A DNA stretch of 30,343 nucleotides, taken from positions 1 through 30,343 of the IMG/VR virus record IMGVR_UViG_3300033149_003049, one strand, 5' to 3'. Both the position numbers and the translations under genes were made by a program. A model generated the notes under the pieces. The model had not been told where the DNA came from. It did no database searches and was given only the letters and a program-made list of their open reading frames with translations. This DNA is from a virus. Shown here in pieces: positions 14,141 through 26,718 of this stretch; the first letter of the stretch is position 1; every line of letters starts with the position of its first letter.

Positions 14141-16999
14141 CTATACATACTTACCTTCCAAGTCTTTTGTCTGAACCTTAATTCTACTCCTCAAATACTT
14201 TATCAAGTCCTCACTACTTGCAAACCTAGCCATCATAACTGTAGGACTACCATCTATCTGTCTATCTGCCTTCAATGCCCAAGCCACCTCAAACCCCCTA
14301 CCCAGTATAGCCAATGCCTCTGTGTAGTAAGGCAATCCATCCTCCTCCAAATGGTCACCAGAGCCAAGAAAATTCTCTTGAAACATCCTCACTGCCCGCT
14401 CACATAGCTCCACCACCTCTGGGGTCACTTGCCTTCCATTCCCCTCCAATATATACCGAGCCATGTGAACCCAATCTCTCATGATGAGGTACTTCCCCAG
14501 CGTCCGCTCTGGATACTTTTCCCTATCCCTCTTCACGAGGTTGATATTGCGATAGAACTTCCTCCGCCGTCTCTCCTCACTCAAATACCCATCATGAGCC
14601 AATCCCACATCAGCCAAACAAACTACCGGCACCACAGCCTCCTTGCCCGGTAGGCGTGGGTGCTCATGCACCATCCCCCAAAACTTAATCCCCAACCCAT
14701 TTCTAAACACCCTCACCGGCTGGTCAGGTTTAAACGGATGTTCTGGAAAGATGCTGAAATGATGTTGTTTTATCACATAGCCATTATACATATTAGTCCG
14801 CAAATATTTAAATAAATCTCTAGCCTCAATCAGCTCCTCATCCGCATCCATCCAAAGGATGAAATCAGTGGTAGCATGCTTTATGCATTCATTCCTCACC
14901 ACATCAAACCCTACCTCCAACGGGTTAGGTCCCTTGTATACCTTGTCTGTATACTGTTTTGCTATCTCTACCGTGCTATCACTACTACCTGTATCCATCA
15001 CAATAATCTCATCAAACGCACTAGCACTCTTCAATGCCCTATGTAACATTGCCTCAGCATCCTTTACTATCAAACAAGCTGCTATTGTTTGTCTAGGTCG
15101 TTGTATAAAGCACTTCCGTCCCATATCCACTTGTCCTACTTCAACACTGCTCTTCTGTCTATATGTAACAAAATGCCAACCCAACGGCTCACCATCCCTA
15201 GGGCTATTGCCAGCCAAGCCTACATTGACTGTGTATTCAGGTTTCTTACCAAACATATCCCGTAGGTCATGTCTATCAAAATGCCAAAAATGCCCTTTAT
15301 ACTTCAGCTCACCACCAGAAGCTCCCCAAGACCCAAACGGAACACTAATCAATACATGTCCACCTTCCTTTACCCACTTTTCTACTTTTCTCATTACTGT
15401 CCATGGTTGTCTAAAATGCTCTAAAATCTCAAAAGCCACTAAACAATCATATTGTCCAAGGACACTATTCTCATCCCCCACCACAAAATTAACATTGCTG
15501 TATTTGTTCAATCGCTTTGCCAGCTCCACTTTTTCTGACACTACCTCTACACCAGTGAAATGCACAGTGGGGAACTGTTTAGCTAGGTTAAAAACATATT
15601 GGCCTACATCACTCCCAAAATCCACTGCTGTCTTTATGTCTGGATGCTCCTTCAGGTAATCCACCAAAAACTGAAGCCTCACAGGGCTGACCATCCCCTC
15701 TATCTCTTCTATACTTTTCACCCCAGTAGGGCCTTCCTCTAGAAACTGCTCTGTGTAAAACTGTTTTACCCCCTCTGCAGCTCCCTGATATTGTTTGTCA
15801 ATCTCTACCCTTTCTTCCTCACCCATCAAGGCTCTAGCAGCCTCTATGTCTTCATAGTAAATAAAATGTTTTTTCAACCTTTCTTTGTCCTGTGTTTGTT
15901 CAGAAAAGAACTGATGAAACTTCTCCATCCACTGCCCCACTACCTTTCCCCAATCAAACTCCTCTGCTCTCTCCCTCCCCCGCTCTGCAAGTTGTCTCCT
16001 TTTGGATGGGCTTCTAGCCAAATAGAGAAGAGCCTTAATAAACCTGTCCTGGTAATCTGGGGTAGATGCCTGCCCTGATACAAAATATCCACAATCCCCC
16101 AACACCTCACGCAGTGCGCCTACATCATTACAAACAAAAACTGTTCCACTTGCCATTGCTTCCACTGCACTGATACAAAACACCTCTTCAAAATCACTAC
16201 AATAAGCATATATCCCTGCACTTTGGTACTGTTTATAAAGCTCCTGTTTATTCAGATGTCCTAGGTTAGTACAGTTAGGTAGCTCTTCAATCCTACCCCA
16301 AAGATACTCATACAGCCCCCTCATCTCAGGCACAGTGTTATCATACCCAGCTACATAGAGATGAAACCTAGGCTCTATCTTTAGTAACTTCTCCATTACC
16401 CCATCAGGCCCTACCAAATTAACCAGCCCACGCTCTGGTCTGGCACAATAAAGTAACCTGTATGGGTCTCCTTCACCAAATGGGATTTCCTCAACTGATA
16501 CCCCATTATGTATTGGCCAGAATACCTGCTCTGGTAGCCCGTATACCTCCCTTTGTTGCTCTGCATGCCACTGGCTTACTGTGACCACTCTGTCTACATT
16601 CCACATTACTTGGTGTACACTGACCTTGTTTCTCTTTAGGGCCAGATCATGGTTCCACAGTATATTCAACCTGCTGCAAGCCCTCCCAGCGAAAGCCTGA
16701 GGCCACCGTTGGACAATAGTTATGTCATGTGGAAAGCTGGTGATATATTTAGATGCCTGAGTTAGAGGTCTATATATTACTCCATCATAAACCCCAGGGC
16801 CACTAGCAGGGGGGACATCACAGTTACAAAACACTGTCACCCTGTTCCCTAGCTGTGCTAAATGCTTAGCCAAACACAACCCGCATGTTTCACTCCCACC
16901 AAGGCTATGCTTATTCAAACTGTCACCGCTAAATGCCATCCCTGGCACCACCAACACTACATCAAAAGTATAGCTCCTCCTCATATCCTTGCTCCTCAT
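14141..16999 (-). CDS. Tri-domain GT4 glycosyltransferase - class I SAM methyltransferase - GT2 glycosyltransferase (952 aa)
   Basis: GT4: GGSE, EX7E motif EVFCISAVE.MASG. Methyltransferase: DFGSDVG at about aa 460, FEILEH. GT2 from about aa 637: ACLIVKD..., DTGSSDST, WMDADE, GMVHE. Confidence 0.88.
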   Translation of the reverse strand: MRSKDMRRSYTFDVVLVVPGMAFSGDSLNKHSLGGSETCGLCLAKHLAQLGNRVTVFCNCDVPPASGPGVYDGVIYRPLTQASKYITSFPHDITIVQRWPQAFAGRACSRLNILWNHDLALKRNKVSVHQVMWNVDRVVTVSQWHAEQQREVYGLPEQVFWPIHNGVSVEEIPFGEGDPYRLLYCARPERGLVNLVGPDGVMEKLLKIEPRFHLYVAGYDNTVPEMRGLYEYLWGRIEELPNCTNLGHLNKQELYKQYQSAGIYAYCSDFEEVFCISAVEAMASGTVFVCNDVGALREVLGDCGYFVSGQASTPDYQDRFIKALLYLARSPSKRRQLAERGRERAEEFDWGKVVGQWMEKFHQFFSEQTQDKERLKKHFIYYEDIEAARALMGEEERVEIDKQYQGAAEGVKQFYTEQFLEEGPTGVKSIEEIEGMVSPVRLQFLVDYLKEHPDIKTAVDFGSDVGQYVFNLAKQFPTVHFTGVEVVSEKVELAKRLNKYSNVNFVVGDENSVLGQYDCLVAFEILEHFRQPWTVMRKVEKWVKEGGHVLISVPFGSWGASGGELKYKGHFWHFDRHDLRDMFGKKPEYTVNVGLAGNSPRDGEPLGWHFVTYRQKSSVEVGQVDMGRKCFIQRPRQTIAACLIVKDAEAMLHRALKSASAFDEIIVMDTGSSDSTVEIAKQYTDKVYKGPNPLEVGFDVVRNECIKHATTDFILWMDADEELIEARDLFKYLRTNMYNGYVIKQHHFSIFPEHPFKPDQPVRVFRNGLGIKFWGMVHEHPRLPGKEAVVPVVCLADVGLAHDGYLSEERRRRKFYRNINLVKRDREKYPERTLGKYLIMRDWVHMARYILEGNGRQVTPEVVELCERAVRMFQENFLGSGDHLEEDGLPYYTEALAILGRGFEVAWALKADRQIDGSPTVMMARFASSEDLIKYLRSRIKVQTKDLEGKYV

Positions 17000-20704: not shown

Positions 20705-21343
20705 CTATTCTTTAAACTCTGCATACCGCTTTGCTAGGTCTGGATCAGCTTTCAACACCGCTTCAAATGCCTCTGCATACTTAACTCTATGCTCTGCCAT
20801 ATACGCCTTCACCTTAGCATCCACCTCTTGCCCCACACTAGCAAACTCACCATCACCTTTTACATTACCCAACTGTTCGGTGAAAGAAACCTTGGAGTCT
20901 TGCCTTGTAAGGTAAATTCTAATCATATCAGCAAGACTAGCCTCTTTACTCTCACCCTTCTCATCCTTGACCTGATATTCTTTCTTCTCAGGTGCATAGA
21001 GAAGTAATTGGGTAACCAGTTCCTCATCCCTTGGCAGAACTTTGCCCTGTGCCTTGAGGTCTTTGACAAAGGTCTGGACTTCCATTGTCTTCTGCTTCAA
21101 CTCCAACTCCCTATTCTTTGCCTCTACCTCTTCAGCCTTTTTCCGCAGCTGTTCTGCCTCATCCCTGTACTTTTTCAGCTCACTAATTTCAGCCTCTTTT
21201 GCCTCAAGCTCTTGCTGGAGCTTTTTGGCTTCTTCCTCAGTAGCCTTCCTCTGCGCCTCCTTTAACTGCTCTACCTGTCCAGTGAGCTGTGCAATCTCCT
21301 CATCCTTCCTTTTAATCAACTCAGCAAATTCTTTCTCTGTCAT
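20705..21343 (-). CDS. Putative separately translated scaffold (212 aa) from an internal in-frame start, Met441
   Basis: AAGGAGG lies 8 nt upstream of the in-frame ATG at 21343, exactly where the coiled coil begins. Confidence 0.6.
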   Translation of the reverse strand: MTEKEFAELIKRKDEEIAQLTGQVEQLKEAQRKATEEEAKKLQQELEAKEAEISELKKYRDEAEQLRKKAEEVEAKNRELELKQKTMEVQTFVKDLKAQGKVLPRDEELVTQLLLYAPEKKEYQVKDEKGESKEASLADMIRIYLTRQDSKVSFTEQLGNVKGDGEFASVGQEVDAKVKAYMAEHRVKYAEAFEAVLKADPDLAKRYAEFKE

Positions 21344-22663
21344 CTCTTCATCCTCCTTCAATGAAAATAAATGTTTTGGGATTTCCTCATCTGGAACCCC
21401 CAGTTTTCTATATAAAGCCACCAGCTTTTGCTTGACTTTTTTAGTCTCGCCCGGTGGTAACTCTACCTTCCTACCCCTAAACCCACCTGGGCTAAGTGCT
21501 GCAACAGCCCTACCCAACTGAACTCTGGTTACTTTTTTATCAGGGTCCTCCCAAATCCGTAACTTCCAGGTGCTAGGTTTTTCTGGGTCTGGAACATATA
21601 AATAAGCTTCTTTTGGATACTGTACCCCATCCTCAGTCTTCATCACCTTAGCAAACCCCCTCCATTCCTCCACCGTATACGGTCTGCTTTCACTAAGTGG
21701 TAACGGGGGCGGGTTTAACCACTTTTTTGCCTCCTCCATCGTCCACTTCCTACGGTCAAATAACCAACTCTGTATATACACCCGCTCATCCTGTCCCTCT
21801 TTCAACACTCCCCCTACATACCGCACGCCCTCAGCACCGCTAAAAGTATTCTCCTTCAACGTGGTAACATCAAATGCGCTCTCAGGATGCACTTCTGCCA
21901 CTACATGCTCTAAATTCTCTTTCCACACTATCATATACTCCCTCCTTTCCTCACCAAGCTCATACACATGCAACTCCCCACTCTCATTCTGCTGGGTGAG
22001 GAACTTTGATATATCAGCCAAGGTGGTTACTGCTGGGATGCTTGAACCCAGTATGGCCACTGCACTGAGTACCCTGGGGTATTTCTTTCCCTCATCCCTG
22101 TAATTCCACAACACCTCTGCACTCCTTCTACCATACAACCCATTCTTAATCGCCTGCATAAGTGTTTTAGGGACATTGCTAATTGTAGCCAGTAGTTTCT
22201 TCCCCTTGCGTTTTAGCTCTGTAACAAAGCCAAGTGCCGGCTGCTCTGTAGCATCTTTAGGCTGAGCCTTATGACCTAACTTCACCACCGGTTTCCATTT
22301 CCCTTTTAACTCCTTAAAAGCCCTTACCATCTCGTCTAAGTCTGCCTCAGTATACTTATCACCATTCCACTCCCCTGCAGCAAAAACCTCTACATCCTTT
22401 AACACCCCTTTACTCTCATACTCCACTAGCACTACTTCACCCACATCATTGAACACCACATGGGGTGTCTCATCCACCTCTGCATTCACTTTTCTAGCCA
22501 CTGCATTAGCCTGCCGTATAGCACTAACCTCACACTCTTCCTGTTTCCTACCCTGCTTTAGACATCTATCAAGTGCACCATTGGCCACTCTTACCCAAAC
22601 CTCTTTCTGTTTATCATTTAGTCCTTTTATATGTTTCTCTACATCTTCTTTATTCCATGGCAT
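20705..22663 (-). CDS. Mu gpI-like prohead protease-scaffold fusion with extra domains (652 aa)
   Basis: Protease aa ~88-220 (VEVFAAGEW, KLGH131, S181AE, L.AVA.LG...PAV); C-terminal coiled coil; ChaB-like N-terminus. Confidence 0.82.
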   Translation of the reverse strand: MPWNKEDVEKHIKGLNDKQKEVWVRVANGALDRCLKQGRKQEECEVSAIRQANAVARKVNAEVDETPHVVFNDVGEVVLVEYESKGVLKDVEVFAAGEWNGDKYTEADLDEMVRAFKELKGKWKPVVKLGHKAQPKDATEQPALGFVTELKRKGKKLLATISNVPKTLMQAIKNGLYGRRSAEVLWNYRDEGKKYPRVLSAVAILGSSIPAVTTLADISKFLTQQNESGELHVYELGEERREYMIVWKENLEHVVAEVHPESAFDVTTLKENTFSGAEGVRYVGGVLKEGQDERVYIQSWLFDRRKWTMEEAKKWLNPPPLPLSESRPYTVEEWRGFAKVMKTEDGVQYPKEAYLYVPDPEKPSTWKLRIWEDPDKKVTRVQLGRAVAALSPGGFRGRKVELPPGETKKVKQKLVALYRKLGVPDEEIPKHLFSLKEDEEMTEKEFAELIKRKDEEIAQLTGQVEQLKEAQRKATEEEAKKLQQELEAKEAEISELKKYRDEAEQLRKKAEEVEAKNRELELKQKTMEVQTFVKDLKAQGKVLPRDEELVTQLLLYAPEKKEYQVKDEKGESKEASLADMIRIYLTRQDSKVSFTEQLGNVKGDGEFASVGQEVDAKVKAYMAEHRVKYAEAFEAVLKADPDLAKRYAEFKE

Positions 22664-22685
22664 TCTACTTCTCCCTCTTTATTGT

Positions 22686-22714
22686 TTTATAGGGTGATTT
22701 AGTTACAAAATTTA
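22686..22714 (-). promoter_or_regulatory. Conserved 29-nt motif, copy 2 (TAAATTTTGTAACTAAATCACCCTATAAA), upstream of the protease gene
   Basis: Same blocks and spacing as the copies at 25966..25994 and 11967..11995. Confidence 0.65.
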
Positions 22715-22828
22715 ATCCCCCTTCTTTCCTCCTTTCTTTTTTCCATACGGGGGGGTGGCTATTGAGCTATCATCTATCCCATCTGTTTTTATTTCCTCAT
22801 CTTCATCCTTCCTTCTAACACACCACAT
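22712..22828 (-). CDS. Micro-ORF (38 aa, MWCVRRKDEDEEIKTDGIDDSSIATPPYGKKKGGKKGD)
   Basis: TGATG overlap with the portal-fusion stop; its TAA is the first three bases of motif copy 2, as with the upstream genes at copies 1 and 3. Confidence 0.45.
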   Translation of the reverse strand: MWCVRRKDEDEEIKTDGIDDSSIATPPYGKKKGGKKGD

Positions 22829-25800
22829 CATTCCTTCTTTCCTCCTGGCAAAACACGATAATATCTAAAATTATATCGTTTGGACACCTTTTGCATAATC
22901 TCATGCGTATGGTCTTTCCAGATTGCCCATTCATCCTCTCCCGCTTTCCATCTTGACTCATACTTATCCATTAATGTATCTCTCTCTGCACCCCAACTAT
23001 AAAAAGCCTCCTCAGCCACAGACGTATAATCTATCCCTACTTTCTTCTCCATCACATACTTAGTCCCATCATGCCCATATACCACCATTCTTCGTATCCC
23101 CTGAGATTGGCAAAAAAGATATACATCTTGTGCACTAAAAGAGGCGCTGCCAGGATGGTTATGTATCCCAACTAACTTCCTTTTAGGGTTCTCCATCAAT
23201 GCAATTGTCTCCTCATCAAACTTCACTACACTCTTCCCCCCTACAAGCACCTTCCCCACTTGTCGTCCCTCCTCCATGTCTACCAAATAAGCTACTTCTA
23301 CCCCTTTACTCTTCCCAATCTCCAATGCACTCTCCCCTAACCTATCCACCACCTCTTCCACAACATACTGTGGAGGGGTAGAAGATGGGCCCCCCACTCT
23401 ACCCCCAAACTCTTCTGGTATCAGTGCCAACAGCTCATCCTTCTCCTGCCTAGTAATAGGGGTGAAGGGGTGTGTCATCATGTCATCCCTAGTTACTGGG
23501 ATCAGCAATGAACGGCAATTATGCACTACCACTCCATTAACCACATAACTCTCATCCCCCTCCACACTTAGGTTATATAACCGCTGGTGGTACTTCATCT
23601 GGCTAGTCCCTACAGCTATTACCACTGCTGTCACAAACCCCCCATCCTGCCATACTGTTATCCTATCACCCACCTCTAACCTCTTCACTGGTACCCAACC
23701 AGGGGTAGCCAACACTGGATGGTCTGGGGTAACTGGAGGGAGGGTTATAGTACCTGTTCCTATATCCAGTATCACCTTATATGCCAACCCTTTATAGGTA
23801 GTGGGGGCTTGGCGGTGGTGGACAAAAGTAACAGGCATATACCTGCCCAAATGGGTCAGCACTTTATCACCCAGCTTTATATCTTTAATTGGCTTGTAGC
23901 CTTTATCTGTTAGCACAGGGGTTTTAGGGGAGAGAAAACAATTGTGGTGCAGCGGAGGGATAAAACGCTCCATGTCTGGGTCATTCTTAGGTATCACTTT
24001 CCCATCAGCCTTTCTGCATATCTCAGTCGTCCTGCTGTCCAATATAGCAGAGAACTCCATCGCAGGGACATAATCCCCAGCTTGCTGCATCATGGATACC
24101 CGCCCATGATTATATGCTGCAGTGGTATTTGTCCGTACCAACTTTTCTATACTATACGGAGTGACAGCCCCTGGTACTAGTACCGCCGGGTCACCTACAT
24201 ATGGTTGATAGGCTTGTTGGATTTTCTGTATGGTCTCTTTCAGTGGAATGCCCTTTTTAAGGGACTCCATCAGGATGTTTTGCACCTTAAAACGGAGTTG
24301 TGAATTCAATATTTCCTTTGTTTGTATGCCTTTGCTCTTTAGCCATTCCAGCGCTGCTGTAGGTGCAAAAGGGTTAAGTCTCTTGTAGTGCTTCTTCCCT
24401 ATCTCCCTCTCTACCTCTTTCCTCCCCTCATAAAAAGCCAAACGGAGCATCTCAGTGATAACCTCTTGCAACTTACCACCATACTTCAGCTCTAGCTTTT
24501 GTATCAGGGTAGGGCGCAACTCCCCTTTCCCCATTCTCTTACTCACAAAATCAATCAACCAGTCCCTTTGTTGCTTTATTACCCCTGTTATCTTCTCCAC
24601 GCTGTTCCTATCCAACTGGTCTAGGTATCTTTGTATCCGTTCAAATTGACATTTTTTCTCATATGGGCTGAGGGGGCGGAAATAAGTAGTGTAAGACCTA
24701 AGCTGATATCCCCCCTCTTCCTCCTCTCTTTCAGGCCAGCCAAGATGTTGCCGTAGCTTATTCTCATCTTTAAGAGTAGGTGATATGACTCCTTTTTCCA
24801 CTGCATCAATAAACAACTTAGCCATAGCCTGTCGCTTTTCCTCATCCATTGGTCTGAATTTAAATTTGGGGTATTTGTCCACAGCATAATTAAAACTGAC
24901 TAGCTCCCTTACCAACTGCTCATTCAGCACCTCTTCCAAGTCCCGCCTATGTTTGTCTACAATCTGGAGAAACACATCAAAATGAACCTTCCCCTGACTG
25001 TAACTACCGTAATGTCCTTGTTCACTTACCCCTAACAAATTGGGTATTAACAAACTACGTGCGATAGCCATATCATGGACAGCAATGGCATCCTTGTATG
25101 TAGACGCCCCCCGTCCACTCACCTCTGGAAAGTCCAGCTCTACCCCATCAGGTAATACTATACTAGTTCTAGCCTGTAGGTTGTCTAGAATATTTTTTAG
25201 GGTTGTCCTTTCATTTTTAGTCAAAGCCTTCTTTAGTGTCCCCACGGCAGGCGGCATACTATACCGTTCTAGATAGATGTTATACAGTTTTATTATCACG
25301 TCCTTGCTCCACCACGCTCTGTAGGCTTCTCGTAAATCACTTACACCGTACCAATTATCAAACTCTTTGCGGTAAGTGTAAATAATGAACTTATTTGGGG
25401 GGAGCTTACGTGTGCCGAAGCCCTGCCACACCCCATTCTTTCGTAAATTACCAAACTCATCCACATCAAAATCCACCCCATGGGGTTTCCTAGTCTTTAT
25501 TGCCTTTACCCCTACCTTTCCACCATAGGGCTCAGTGCCTGGGAGCAGGGTATAAACTTTTTCACTCACACTAAATCCATAGTCAAATGCTGTCATAATG
25601 TTCAACAACACATCTTCAAACGTCCCCTTTACTCTCTCTAAGTTATGTTTCACAAACTCTGCTACTTCTATATCAGCCTCATCATCACTAGCTGGCTCTA
25701 CCACCCAGCCTGAACACAACACAGCAAATTTACGTAGGTTCATGCATCCCTTCACTGTGTCATCCCTGCGTATTTTGTCATATATCCTCAACCCACCTTT

Positions 25801-25947
25801 TCTACTTGCCAGCGTATCAGGATTATAGGGGGTAAAAAGAGCAGTAGGGTATAACAGGGTCTCCCTGCTCATCAGCTCTTTATCAAGCTGAGCCTCCCTG
25901 GTAGGGGTGGTCTGGAATATCTTTTTAATATGACCAAAAATAGACAT
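22828..25947 (-). CDS. Portal (Mu gp29/DUF935-like) - MuF (gp30-like) - mini-intein - JAB/MPN-like domain fusion (1039 aa)
   Basis: Portal aa ~30-410 (YG.SDLR.AY..WW.K...LYN.YLERY..P). MuF: RTNTT.AYN.GR, FSAILDSRTT.IC...DG, PPLHHN/CRS. C-terminal E884...H929-N-H931-P...S938-x2-D941. Confidence 0.88.
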   Translation of the reverse strand: MSIFGHIKKIFQTTPTREAQLDKELMSRETLLYPTALFTPYNPDTLASRKGGLRIYDKIRRDDTVKGCMNLRKFAVLCSGWVVEPASDDEADIEVAEFVKHNLERVKGTFEDVLLNIMTAFDYGFSVSEKVYTLLPGTEPYGGKVGVKAIKTRKPHGVDFDVDEFGNLRKNGVWQGFGTRKLPPNKFIIYTYRKEFDNWYGVSDLREAYRAWWSKDVIIKLYNIYLERYSMPPAVGTLKKALTKNERTTLKNILDNLQARTSIVLPDGVELDFPEVSGRGASTYKDAIAVHDMAIARSLLIPNLLGVSEQGHYGSYSQGKVHFDVFLQIVDKHRRDLEEVLNEQLVRELVSFNYAVDKYPKFKFRPMDEEKRQAMAKLFIDAVEKGVISPTLKDENKLRQHLGWPEREEEEGGYQLRSYTTYFRPLSPYEKKCQFERIQRYLDQLDRNSVEKITGVIKQQRDWLIDFVSKRMGKGELRPTLIQKLELKYGGKLQEVITEMLRLAFYEGRKEVEREIGKKHYKRLNPFAPTAALEWLKSKGIQTKEILNSQLRFKVQNILMESLKKGIPLKETIQKIQQAYQPYVGDPAVLVPGAVTPYSIEKLVRTNTTAAYNHGRVSMMQQAGDYVPAMEFSAILDSRTTEICRKADGKVIPKNDPDMERFIPPLHHNCFLSPKTPVLTDKGYKPIKDIKLGDKVLTHLGRYMPVTFVHHRQAPTTYKGLAYKVILDIGTGTITLPPVTPDHPVLATPGWVPVKRLEVGDRITVWQDGGFVTAVVIAVGTSQMKYHQRLYNLSVEGDESYVVNGVVVHNCRSLLIPVTRDDMMTHPFTPITRQEKDELLALIPEEFGGRVGGPSSTPPQYVVEEVVDRLGESALEIGKSKGVEVAYLVDMEEGRQVGKVLVGGKSVVKFDEETIALMENPKRKLVGIHNHPGSASFSAQDVYLFCQSQGIRRMVVYGHDGTKYVMEKKVGIDYTSVAEEAFYSWGAERDTLMDKYESRWKAGEDEWAIWKDHTHEIMQKVSKRYNFRYYRVLPGGKKE
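23518..23940 (-). mobile_element. 141-aa mini-intein (Hint domain, no homing endonuclease) inside the MuF domain
   Basis: Block A C670-FLSPKTPVLT, block B VTPDHPV (TxxH), block F LYNLSVEGDESYVVNG, block G VVHN810 followed by C811. Removal restores PPLHHN-CRSLLIPV. Confidence 0.93.
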
Positions 25948-25965
25948 TTTTTCCTTTCTATCTAG

Positions 25966-25994
25966 TTAATAAGGCAATTTAACTGCAAAATTTA
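25966..25994 (-). promoter_or_regulatory. Conserved 29-nt motif, copy 1 (TAAATTTTGCAGTTAAATTGCCTTATTAA), upstream of the portal gene
   Basis: Aligns with two other copies; similarity to copy 3 continues for 10 nt downstream (YTAGRTAGAA). Confidence 0.7.
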
Positions 25995-26531
25995 GCTCTC
26001 CATCATCAGCTTTTTCAACTCCGCCTTAAACCGCCTAACTACATTGCTCACTGTGGCCTCAGATACCTGCATCATCGCTGCTACCTCTTTTTGTGAGTAC
26101 CCACCAAAAAGAGACAACACAACCATAGCCCGATGCCCTTCAGTAAGGGTGGACAAAAGAGCCTGGTATTGGTCATCTGATACCCAAGAGGGTATAGACG
26201 CTGCCTTCCCCTCTTCCACTCTACTTTCTACCTGAGCAGTAACAGGGTCAGTAGAAAACTCCCTCAATACCCGCTGCATTATCTTGGACAAGTATTGGAC
26301 AACATCCCCTGCTGGCCTATTCACATCCACTTTTCCCACCTTCACCAACTGCCACAAACGCAATGAAGCCTCAGCCTGCATATCCTCCCAGTATTGCTCT
26401 TTGCCTTTATGTTCAGAGCGGAGGAAATACCCCACCATCACCTTTACCAATGGCCAAAGCGCCTCAAACTGCATCTTTTTCAGCTCCTCCTGTACCCGCT
26501 TCATTTGCTCATTCAGGTTATCTACTTCCAT
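25992..26531 (-). CDS. ECF-like RNA polymerase sigma factor (probable start MEVDNL at 26531)
   Basis: Region 2-like EDMQAEASLRLWQ...Y.SKI and region 4 HTH LTEGHR.MVVL..FGGYSQKEVA.MM.VSEATVSNVV.R; SD GGAGGGGGG. Confidence 0.78.
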   Translation of the reverse strand: MEVDNLNEQMKRVQEELKKMQFEALWPLVKVMVGYFLRSEHKGKEQYWEDMQAEASLRLWQLVKVGKVDVNRPAGDVVQYLSKIMQRVLREFSTDPVTAQVESRVEEGKAASIPSWVSDDQYQALLSTLTEGHRAMVVLSLFGGYSQKEVAAMMQVSEATVSNVVRRFKAELKKLMMES

Positions 26532-26718
26532 CCCCCCTCCTAACCTTCCACTCATGTAACACTACCTTGTCTTTTAACCTAACCAGCCGATGGTATTGAT
26601 ATGCAGGGGTGCTCAAGACTATATGTGAGTAATGGGTAGTGAGGAACTTTTTAAACTGGTTACATTGAAACAAACCTCGTATAAGCTCCCTCTCCACTGC
26701 CATCAGCTCATCTTCCAT
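26518..26718 (-). CDS. Hypothetical protein (66 aa, MEDELMAVER...)
   Basis: ATG 11 nt after the GT9 stop; overlaps the sigma start. Confidence 0.5.
   Translation of the reverse strand: MEDELMAVERELIRGLFQCNQFKKFLTTHYSHIVLSTPAYQYHRLVRLKDKVVLHEWKVRRGDGSR

Follow-up and report, generated by a model that had tools for sequence, protein, structure and literature searches.

A JAB-fold metal-hydrolase-like domain and its 39-residue partner peptide at the end of a portal-MuF fusion protein from a hydrothermal-vent phage

The IMG/VR virus record IMGVR_UViG_3300033149_003049 is a 30-kb phage fragment of hydrothermal-vent metagenome origin, and the stretch analyzed here (hereafter the window; 30,343 nucleotides) is identical to it. 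The completeness of the record is estimated at 31%, and its best DNA matches lie in hydrothermal-vent and sediment metagenomes. The subject of this analysis is a single open reading frame (ORF) on the minus strand, which encodes a Mu-type portal, a linker, a MuF domain interrupted by a mini-intein, and a terminal domain resembling the JAB/MPN metalloenzymes; its stop codon overlaps the start of a second ORF for a peptide of 39 amino acids (aa). On the basis of its predicted model, the terminal domain was filed as a JAB-fold, JAMM-like metal hydrolase outside all curated JAB families, and the 39-aa product is its cognate partner. With slightly better than even confidence, the pair is read as a virion-internal polymorphic effector of the MuF type with a cognate inhibitor, built onto the portal subunit. 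The parts of the locus are as follows:

22828..25947, minus strand: the whole 1039-aa ORF, with portal, linker, MuF, intein, and JAB-like domain (open-frame translation, Pfam, PHROGs)
24715..25821, minus strand: Mu-type portal domain, aa 43-411 (Pfam Portal_Mu, E 4.4e-69; phrog_113, E 1.8e-87)
24367..24714, minus strand: portal-MuF linker with an acidic stretch, aa 412-527 (no Pfam domain match; contigs of four runs continuous through it)
23941..24366, minus strand: N-extein part of the MuF domain, aa 528-669, ending in PPLHHN (Pfam Phage_Mu_F; PHROG minor head and head morphogenesis families)
23518..23940, minus strand: mini-intein of 141 aa, C670 to N810, with TxxH at 740-743 and Cys811 at +1 (Hint_2, PT-HINT, Intein_splicing; clean gap against the intein-less relatives P0002 and P0003)
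23383..23517, minus strand: end of MuF (C-extein, CRSLLIPV...) and linker to GGRVGGPS, aa 811-855, the end of the short relatives and the cassette swap point (P0002/P0003, P0142, X3 contig)
22831..23382, minus strand: JAB/MPN-like metal-hydrolase domain, aa 856-1039 (AlphaFold2 model, Foldseek, VIA-align, 405 relatives)
23296-23298, minus strand: codon of E884 (read from the translation)
23125..23163, minus strand: metal-site motif H929-N-H931-P-G-S-A-S-F-S938-A-Q-D941 (read from the translation; nearly invariant in the family)
22712..22831, minus strand: 39-aa partner ORF (ORF call, hidden Markov model, fused homologues, complex prediction)

A preliminary description of this DNA had claimed one uninterrupted ORF with portal, MuF, and end domain, and the frame 22828-25947 (-) is indeed open for 1039 codons. 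Portal_Mu (PF06074) matches aa 54-391 at 233.8 bits against a cut-off of 23.9 and covers profile positions 2-324 of 336, while Phage_Mu_F (PF04233) matches aa 554-670 (E 4.4e-12; 47.2 bits against a cut-off of 29.6). Hint_2, PT-HINT, and Intein_splicing match over aa 670-810, Hint_2 above its cut-off, and the order in PHROGs agrees with that in Pfam, the portal being followed by minor head and head morphogenesis families. The same description had allowed that the fusion could be an assembly artefact and had set it against the separate portal and MuF genes of other phages. No joint was found at the portal-MuF junction: positions 24174-24852, across the linker, are tiled by contigs from four runs, one from each of four studies, and the sole change is an in-frame insertion of 3 nucleotides (this cover consists of short Logan contigs rather than raw reads, and gaps and depth per run carry no meaning). 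In cultured phages the portal and MuF are adjacent, separate genes; however, of the 119 best relatives of the full-length protein, about 100 have Portal_Mu and Phage_Mu_F in one chain of 690-800 residues. The departure from separate genes is thus genuine, but it is the norm for this portal clade in metagenomes and not the oddity it was taken for; the portal-MuF fusion is real and not rare. Fusions of portal, MuF, and effector had previously been drawn by Iyer et al. (2017; PMC5512222).

The C-terminal domain was modeled by AlphaFold2 from a 48-row alignment with a predicted local distance difference test value (pLDDT) of 97.1 and a predicted template modeling score (pTM) of 0.91. Its best Foldseek matches in the PDB were BubCD (9ea4, E 7.3e-4) and STAMBPL1/AMSH (7l97_A, E 8.7e-4), and the other best rows were CSN5, Rpn11, PfJAMM1, a bacterial ubiquitin-like (Ubl)-deubiquitinase, and RadC; the Foldseek template modeling scores reach only about 0.3-0.4 because of extra helices in the model. 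VIA-align, which is independent of Foldseek, returned JAB/MPN proteins in all of its first 13 rows, with deaminase-fold proteins next. Among these were PfJAMM1 (5ld9_A; Z 7.4, root-mean-square deviation 3.8 over 113 aligned residues), Cap3 (9ild_A; Z 7.0, 4.2 over 117), Sst2 (4jxe_A; Z 6.8, 4.3 over 129), a Bil deubiquitinase (8tyy_B; Z 6.7, 3.9 over 123), and RadC (2qlc_A; Z 5.8, 3.9 over 107), where rows within 1 Z of each other count as tied. The MPN fold that had been claimed for this domain is therefore borne out by structure search, in which the top matches are all JAB/MPN, with moderate Z values.

The residues named earlier as catalytic (E884, H929, H931, S938, and D941) all stand at the positions given, and the spacing had rightly been described as one residue short, HxH-x6-S-xx-D in place of the canonical x7. 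Across the family, all five residues of the canonical E-x(n)-H-x-H-x7-S-x2-D signature are present and the motif reads H-[NT]-H-P-x-S-S-S-F-S-x-x-D, again with x6. As this spacing is common to the whole family, it is no local deletion of the window protein. It is the uniform structural matches and the ordered E/HxH/S/D set that lead to the JAB assignment, and the domain is presumably zinc-dependent. Sequence profiles are less generous. The best Pfam match of the end domain, Prok-JAB, is sub-threshold (E 0.026, 14.8 bits against a cut-off of 25), the other JAB-family Pfam models give nothing at E<=10, and NCBIfam has no match for the domain. Among named Atlas clusters, those closest to the domain are Phage_min_cap2, Prok-JAB, RadC, and DUF4329, which are leads only, and a single-sequence search of the PDB with the end domain gave chance matches. 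A profile search of the PDB placed at its top designed 'Cake' repeat proteins that share G-x-D-G-T-x-Y, a candidate that was rejected, with AfJAMM merely at E 0.5.

Exhaustive HMMER searching found at least 405 cluster representatives of the JAB-like family at E<=1e-3 and 75 at E<=1e-10 (clusters at 50% identity). They occur either as stand-alone proteins of 145-215 aa or as the C-terminal ends of longer chains, and family members are also present in bacterial genome assemblies, among them those of Anaerovorax odorimutans DSM 5092 and Butyrivibrio sp. AC2005. Among 72 longer relatives, the upstream domain is Phage_Mu_F in 35 and Phage_min_cap2 in 16 (51/72 together), and RelA/SpoT, ADP-ribosyltransferase, InPase, or topoisomerase-like domains appear in a few, in the style of polyvalent proteins. 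In nearly all motif-bearing relatives (140 listed) the chain ends about 10 residues or less from the expected end of the domain. A close-relative scan of viral contigs with the JAB domain found none, and the corresponding metagenome scan found one locus only, L061. In that locus (L061:1-2377, motif HSHSNNASFSSQD), the JAB relative overlaps the end of an SNF2-family helicase gene, a setting that points to a possible second role of the family outside the virion.

The ATG of the 39-aa ORF overlaps the TGA of the fusion ORF (ATGA) and is preceded 9 nucleotides upstream by AGGAGG. The peptide has the core G-I-D-D-S-S-I-A-T-P-P-Y-G, and ORFs of 43-63 codons lie directly after four stand-alone relatives of the JAB domain (P0121, P0132, P0145, and P0153), their products sharing with it the core G-I-(I)-D-D-x-x-I-x-x-P-P-Y. 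A hidden Markov model (HMM) of the four peptides nearest to that of the window, from which the window peptide was excluded, returned the window ORF as its only non-seed match in a set of 10,846 ORFs (E 4.9e-4; next match E 5.2). In 56 viral loci, retrieved through a degenerate nucleotide pattern of the JAB motif, the peptide family overlaps or abuts the JAB stop codon in 44, with one HMM match per locus among 10,846 six-frame ORFs. A further 27 bacterial genome loci, mainly from Bacillota with some from Treponema, Proteobacteria, and Actinomycetes, were independent of the building of the HMM; here the peptide was matched in 14, each match ending 131-173 nucleotides past the JAB stop on the same strand, and none was found elsewhere among 3,661 ORFs. 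In the peptide alignment a single Tyr is invariant, and the Pro at the second position before it is nearly so. Two loci, L003 and L004, carry the JAB-peptide pair in a chromosomal context that lacks phage genes, with Pth and an M16 peptidase as neighbors.

Complex prediction with the JAB domain and the 39-aa peptide gave a score of 0.86, as against 0.02 for the best of three controls. This level was reached by 58 of 80 solved complexes and by 2 of 110 mismatched pairs, counts that hold only roughly for this case because it used its own alignments. Contact agreement between runs was at least 89%, and the pLDDT of the partner was at least 62. The confidently predicted contacts on the side of the enzyme include E884, H929, H931, S938, D941, the strand formed by residues 51-56 of the model, and the helices at the C-terminus. 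Those of the peptide fall in residues 14-30, which are the conserved core. In the model, I19, D20, and D21 of the peptide adjoin the metal ligands, and P27, P28, and Y29 lie against helix 152-156. Since the five catalytic residues all touch one short stretch of the peptide in this model, they appear to cluster into a single site. The prediction supports binding of the 39-aa peptide to the JAB active site, and, as the predicted site of the peptide is the cleft that holds ubiquitin-like tails in other JAB enzymes, the substrate would more probably be a peptide or isopeptide bond.

Five homologues (P0148, P0172, P0181, P0194, and P0264) carry the peptide motif fused in frame, 127-138 residues after HxH, where the window peptide would fall at about +129, and three of the fused motifs are near-identical to that of the window: ILDDSSIAVPPY (P0264), LDDSSIANPPY (P0181), and VLDDSRIATPPY (P0194). 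These fusions speak for the pairing of the JAB domain with the peptide, and, being at the same distance, they would also fit a self-contained zymogen or maturation device, in which the peptide is a pro-segment or substrate cut by the JAB domain, or in which the JAB domain cuts the portal-MuF linker at maturation or ejection. In a variant of this proposal, the peptide may be tethered in some molecules through a -1 ribosomal slip at GGA-AAG-AAG before the stop codon. The window peptide does lie in the -1 frame, which is open from 22864, an A-AAG slip-like site with AGGAGG upstream can be seen by eye just before the stop codon, and most viral loci have out-of-frame overlaps of -4 to -35 nucleotides. 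However, an AGGAGG placed 9 nucleotides before an ATG is equally an ordinary ribosome-binding site with start-stop coupling, and no frameshift product has been observed. Moreover, most family members sit on an unfused MuF with no portal linker to cut, and the stand-alone chromosomal pairs have no head to mature. This proposal is regarded as improbable.

Somewhat less unlikely is a RadC-like nucleic-acid enzyme, that is, a nuclease toxin acting on DNA, RNA, or nucleotides for which the peptide would be the immunity protein. The HNHP start of the metal-site motif is RadC-like, and weak RadC signals were obtained from NCBIfam (RadC, E 0.019, with P0132), from the structural match to 2qlc_A at Z 5.8, and from the Atlas RadC cluster (0.81, a lead only). 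Nuclease activity was predicted for divergent JAB toxins by Zhang et al. (2012) and Iyer et al. (2017; PMC5512222), and more than half of the known MuF toxins are nucleases. On the other hand, the RadC model (PF04002) finds nothing in the window at E<=0.001, the literature found contains no demonstration of a JAB-fold nuclease, and a partner predicted as an extended peptide in the cleft points to a peptide-binding groove.

The preliminary description had itself offered an injected anti-defence deconjugase. In the form considered here, the enzyme would strip ubiquitin-like or CD-NTase conjugates of CBASS type II, Bil, or Bub systems early in infection, and the peptide would be a chaperone or assembly factor and not an inhibitor. 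Cap3 (Z 7.0), the Ubl-deubiquitinase 8tyy_B (Z 6.7), and BubCD (Foldseek E 7.3e-4) are among the top structural matches, the catalytic set is intact, the predicted pose of the peptide on strand 51-56 is like that of a ubiquitin-like tail, and delivery together with the DNA would be good timing. Nonetheless, the domain fits the defence JABs no better than it fits archaeal or eukaryotic JAMMs or RadC, and none of the loci seen has a linked gene for a ubiquitin-like protein, an E1, or an E2. A harmless enzyme would not be expected to have chromosomal two-gene copies or so strict a linkage to a partner predicted to cover its active site, and literature searches gave no description of such a phage enzyme. 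The idea found no specific support and is now regarded as unlikely; the linked plug and the non-phage chromosomal copies fit better with an enzyme that is kept in check. A more elaborate version combines it with the zymogen: a latent isopeptidase in up to twelve portal copies would be held by a substrate-mimicking micro-peptide plug, sometimes slip-tethered and lost on ejection, and would release an injected burst of deconjugase against Bil, Bub, or CBASS marks. This scenario is very unlikely; if true, it would be the first virion-delivered, zymogen-type anti-ubiquitination weapon.

Where the effector joins its carrier, the trunk shows signs of exchange. The closest short relatives, P0002 and P0003 (49% identical), end at GGRLGNK and GGRIGQ, while the window protein goes on after GGRVGGPS. 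P0142, a fragment recovered from a different sample, shares 92% identity with the window over 267 aa (97.5% in MuF, 87% in the intein, and 97.8% in the linker) and is unrelated after GGRVGGPS, and one X3 contig leaves the window sequence at 23390, which is the same codon at which P0142 diverges. Because P0142 and the X3 contig diverge exactly where the short relatives stop, the locus has the hallmark of polymorphic effectors, and the suggestion that its MuF protein carries a variable C-terminal effector domain is upheld by all three lines of evidence. Residues 268-537 of P0142 form an alternative cassette on the same portal-MuF-intein trunk. This end domain has no Pfam or NCBIfam match; the leads are limited to a weak resemblance to DraT-type ADP-ribosyltransferases in the Atlas (0.82) and a pattern like R...ExE noticed by eye.

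The intein interrupts MuF at its most conserved point. Its removal leaves PPLHHN joined to CRSLLIPV, which restores the MuF consensus PPxHxNCR according to the alignment with intein-less relatives, and a clean gap of 141 residues is seen against P0002, P0003, P0005, P0007, and P0010. The intein blocks are complete (Cys1 as C670, T740-P-D-H743, H809-N810, and C811 at +1), and splicing would be expected to yield a protein of 898 aa. The same MuF site holds larger inteins with endonuclease-like inserts in P0012, P0028, P0065, P0072, and P0148; in P0028, merely 37 residues follow the intein and there is no effector. H-x-N|C-R of MuF is in fact a recurrent intein site (P0012, P0028, P0065, P0072, P0148, and P0172), and several of the inserts are DUF559/Vsr-like or PvuRts1I-like endonucleases. 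As the site is occupied in relatives without an effector, the intein is independent of the cargo and, judged by these alignments, is a selfish insert and not part of the effector logic. Intein-mediated cleavage had been put forward as a release device, but what is found is an ordinary intein at a site that is also filled in effector-less relatives; a purpose-built pre-toxin HINT release device was likewise considered as the principal explanation and rejected, because cargo-less relatives hold inteins at the same site. The element resembles the known inteins of phage structural and packaging genes in its Cys1, TxxH, His-Asn, and +1 Cys and in its insertion into the most conserved motif of the host protein. 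It differs from the larger endonuclease-bearing inteins of its relatives in being a mini-intein without an endonuclease, and from usual phage inteins in lying merely 45 residues upstream of a toxin-type cassette, a place typical of pre-toxin HINT domains. Given this position, release of the cargo by off-pathway C-terminal cleavage of the intein could occur.

Several known systems share parts of this design. MuF polymorphic toxins have been described by Zhang et al. (2012; PMC3482391) and Jamet et al. (2017; PMC5576092), and the cargos Apk2 and Bxa in PMC10083569 and PMC11699363; the latter two toxins have adjacent small, non-enzymatic immunity proteins that block the active site (PMC11699363; PMC5576092). 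Like these, the window protein joins a MuF module to a C-terminal enzyme that can be exchanged, and it is encoded in the head module next to the portal function. The product of the small ORF that follows is predicted to cover the active site, and a near-identical relative bears another cassette. Unlike them, its MuF is fused to the portal and interrupted by an intein, its partner has only 39 aa, and its cargo is JAB-fold, whereas the characterized MuF cargos are a (p)ppApp synthetase and an ADP-ribosyltransferase. At the level of sequence, every feature of a MuF polymorphic toxin that could be looked for here is present, and the toxicity itself is putative.

Polyvalent proteins offer a second comparison. 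Iyer et al. (2017; PMC5512222) described effectors (PBECR RNase, 2H phosphoesterase, InPase) joined to MuF and/or portal, for which packaging and injection were predicted, and listed RadC-type JAB domains in polyvalent proteins. The present JAB domain does have relatives in true polyvalent chains, alongside RelA/SpoT, ART, InPase, and topoisomerase-like domains; however, the family passes no RadC or JAB model, and a cognate micro-peptide is absent from that description. With the JAMM/MPN+ enzymes (AfJAMM, PfJAMM1, Rpn11, AMSH/Sst2, Cap3, and the BilC/Bub JAB), the domain shares the fold by structure search and the order of E, HxH, S, and D, but it differs in its HxH-x6-S spacing, an extra N-terminal helix, and two long C-terminal helices, as well as in having no linked ubiquitin-like protein and a sequence similarity below every curated threshold. 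The divergent JAB toxin tips described in 2012 likewise combine a C-terminal JAB tip with a dedicated immunity gene. In contrast to these, the window domain has no Pfam DUF4329 match at E<=10, its delivery is by MuF and not Rhs, and its partner is a short linear peptide rather than Imm65 or an NTF2-like protein. Searches of the literature on MuF with JAB, phage deubiquitinases, and Tox-JAB/DUF4329 found no experimental work on such domains, and the supplementary tables of Jamet et al. (2017) list no JAB cargo. In the literature searched, the JAB family as a MuF cargo, the micro-peptide partner with its fused forms, and the combination with a portal fusion and an intein are not yet described.

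A mechanism for the favored effector-inhibitor reading can be outlined. The JAB enzyme would be carried in the head on the inner side of the portal, in up to 12 copies per head if the portal is dodecameric. In the producing cell and during head assembly, the core of the peptide (hydrophobic, acidic, and P-x-Y), lying across the catalytic site, would keep the enzyme silent, by analogy with Apk2 and Bxa. The enzyme could be freed by a cut in the linker, made by the neighboring prohead protease or by off-pathway cleavage at the intein, and, once inside the next cell, would work either as a toxin or in host takeover.

A number of points weigh against this account. The end domain passes no curated JAB model (Prok-JAB PF14464, JAB PF01398, RadC PF04002, DUF4329 PF14220), and its Z of at most 7.4 is in a range that may reflect just a common arrangement. 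The statistical support for the window peptide is moderate (19.3 bits), and the peptide HMM has no match in 11 of the 56 viral and 13 of the 27 genomic loci, so that the pairing is not universal or the peptides have diverged past detection. The closest stand-alone relative of the JAB domain (L061, 57% identical) follows the SNF2 helicase gene without a recognizable partner peptide. Furthermore, a peptide in the cleft would suit a substrate as well as an inhibitor, and a covalent fusion to the portal needs a cut to leave the head, for which no cleavage site is known. Lastly, carriage by temperate phages or prophages is a trait of MuF toxins (Jamet et al., 2017; PMC5576092), and no integrase is in view in the 30-kb fragment, which holds about 31% of the genome.

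Every gene in the surroundings lies on the minus strand. Upstream of the fusion ORF is a sigma-factor-like gene of 187 aa (25992-26555, minus strand; phrog_1740, E 7e-12), which occupies the place before the portal where a terminase is usual; no terminase is present in the 30-kb fragment. Downstream follow the head-maturation protease, a scaffold-like protein, and the major head protein, and further on glycosyltransferase fusions and adaptor, neck, tail tube, tape measure, and distal tail genes. The protease gene (20705-22663, minus strand) is unusually long at 652 aa, with a protease match confined to aa 78-229, a phrog_19463 region (aa 338-482), and then a Lys/Glu-rich, coiled-coil-like tail, and its product may be a protease-scaffold fusion. 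A protein of 952 aa with two glycosyltransferase regions (14141-16999, minus strand) is encoded between the head and adaptor genes. Two copies of a promoter-like motif frame the locus:

25965..25994, minus strand: AAATTTTG-N4-TAAAT, directly upstream of the portal start (motif count)
22684..22714, minus strand: second copy of AAATTTTG-N4-TAAAT, from the stop codon of the 39-aa ORF and ahead of the protease gene (motif count)

These are the only two copies in the window, as against 0.12 expected by chance, and the upstream copy overlaps the stop codon of the sigma-factor gene. With one copy just before the portal start and the other just after the stop of the small ORF, the fusion ORF and the 39-aa ORF look like one unit, and the motif could serve as a late promoter for the sigma factor that the phage encodes. 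A repeat search of the window did not recover this junction motif, and scans of the window for sigma-70 promoters and terminators gave results at chance level.

MuF-linked toxins are common in phages, and only two of their cargos, Apk2 and Bxa, have been studied. The locus described here is informative in that its cargo sits on the portal subunit itself, with an intein 45 residues upstream and alternative cassettes at the same point, of which vent and sediment contigs hold at least two on one trunk. The cargo belongs to a widespread, uncatalogued JAB-fold family, and its partner is one of a set of peptides of 40-60 residues with a short conserved core. The JAB-peptide pair could therefore reveal what the divergent toxin-type JAB domains cut, a question open since their prediction in 2012, and how a short linear peptide shuts off a JAMM site.

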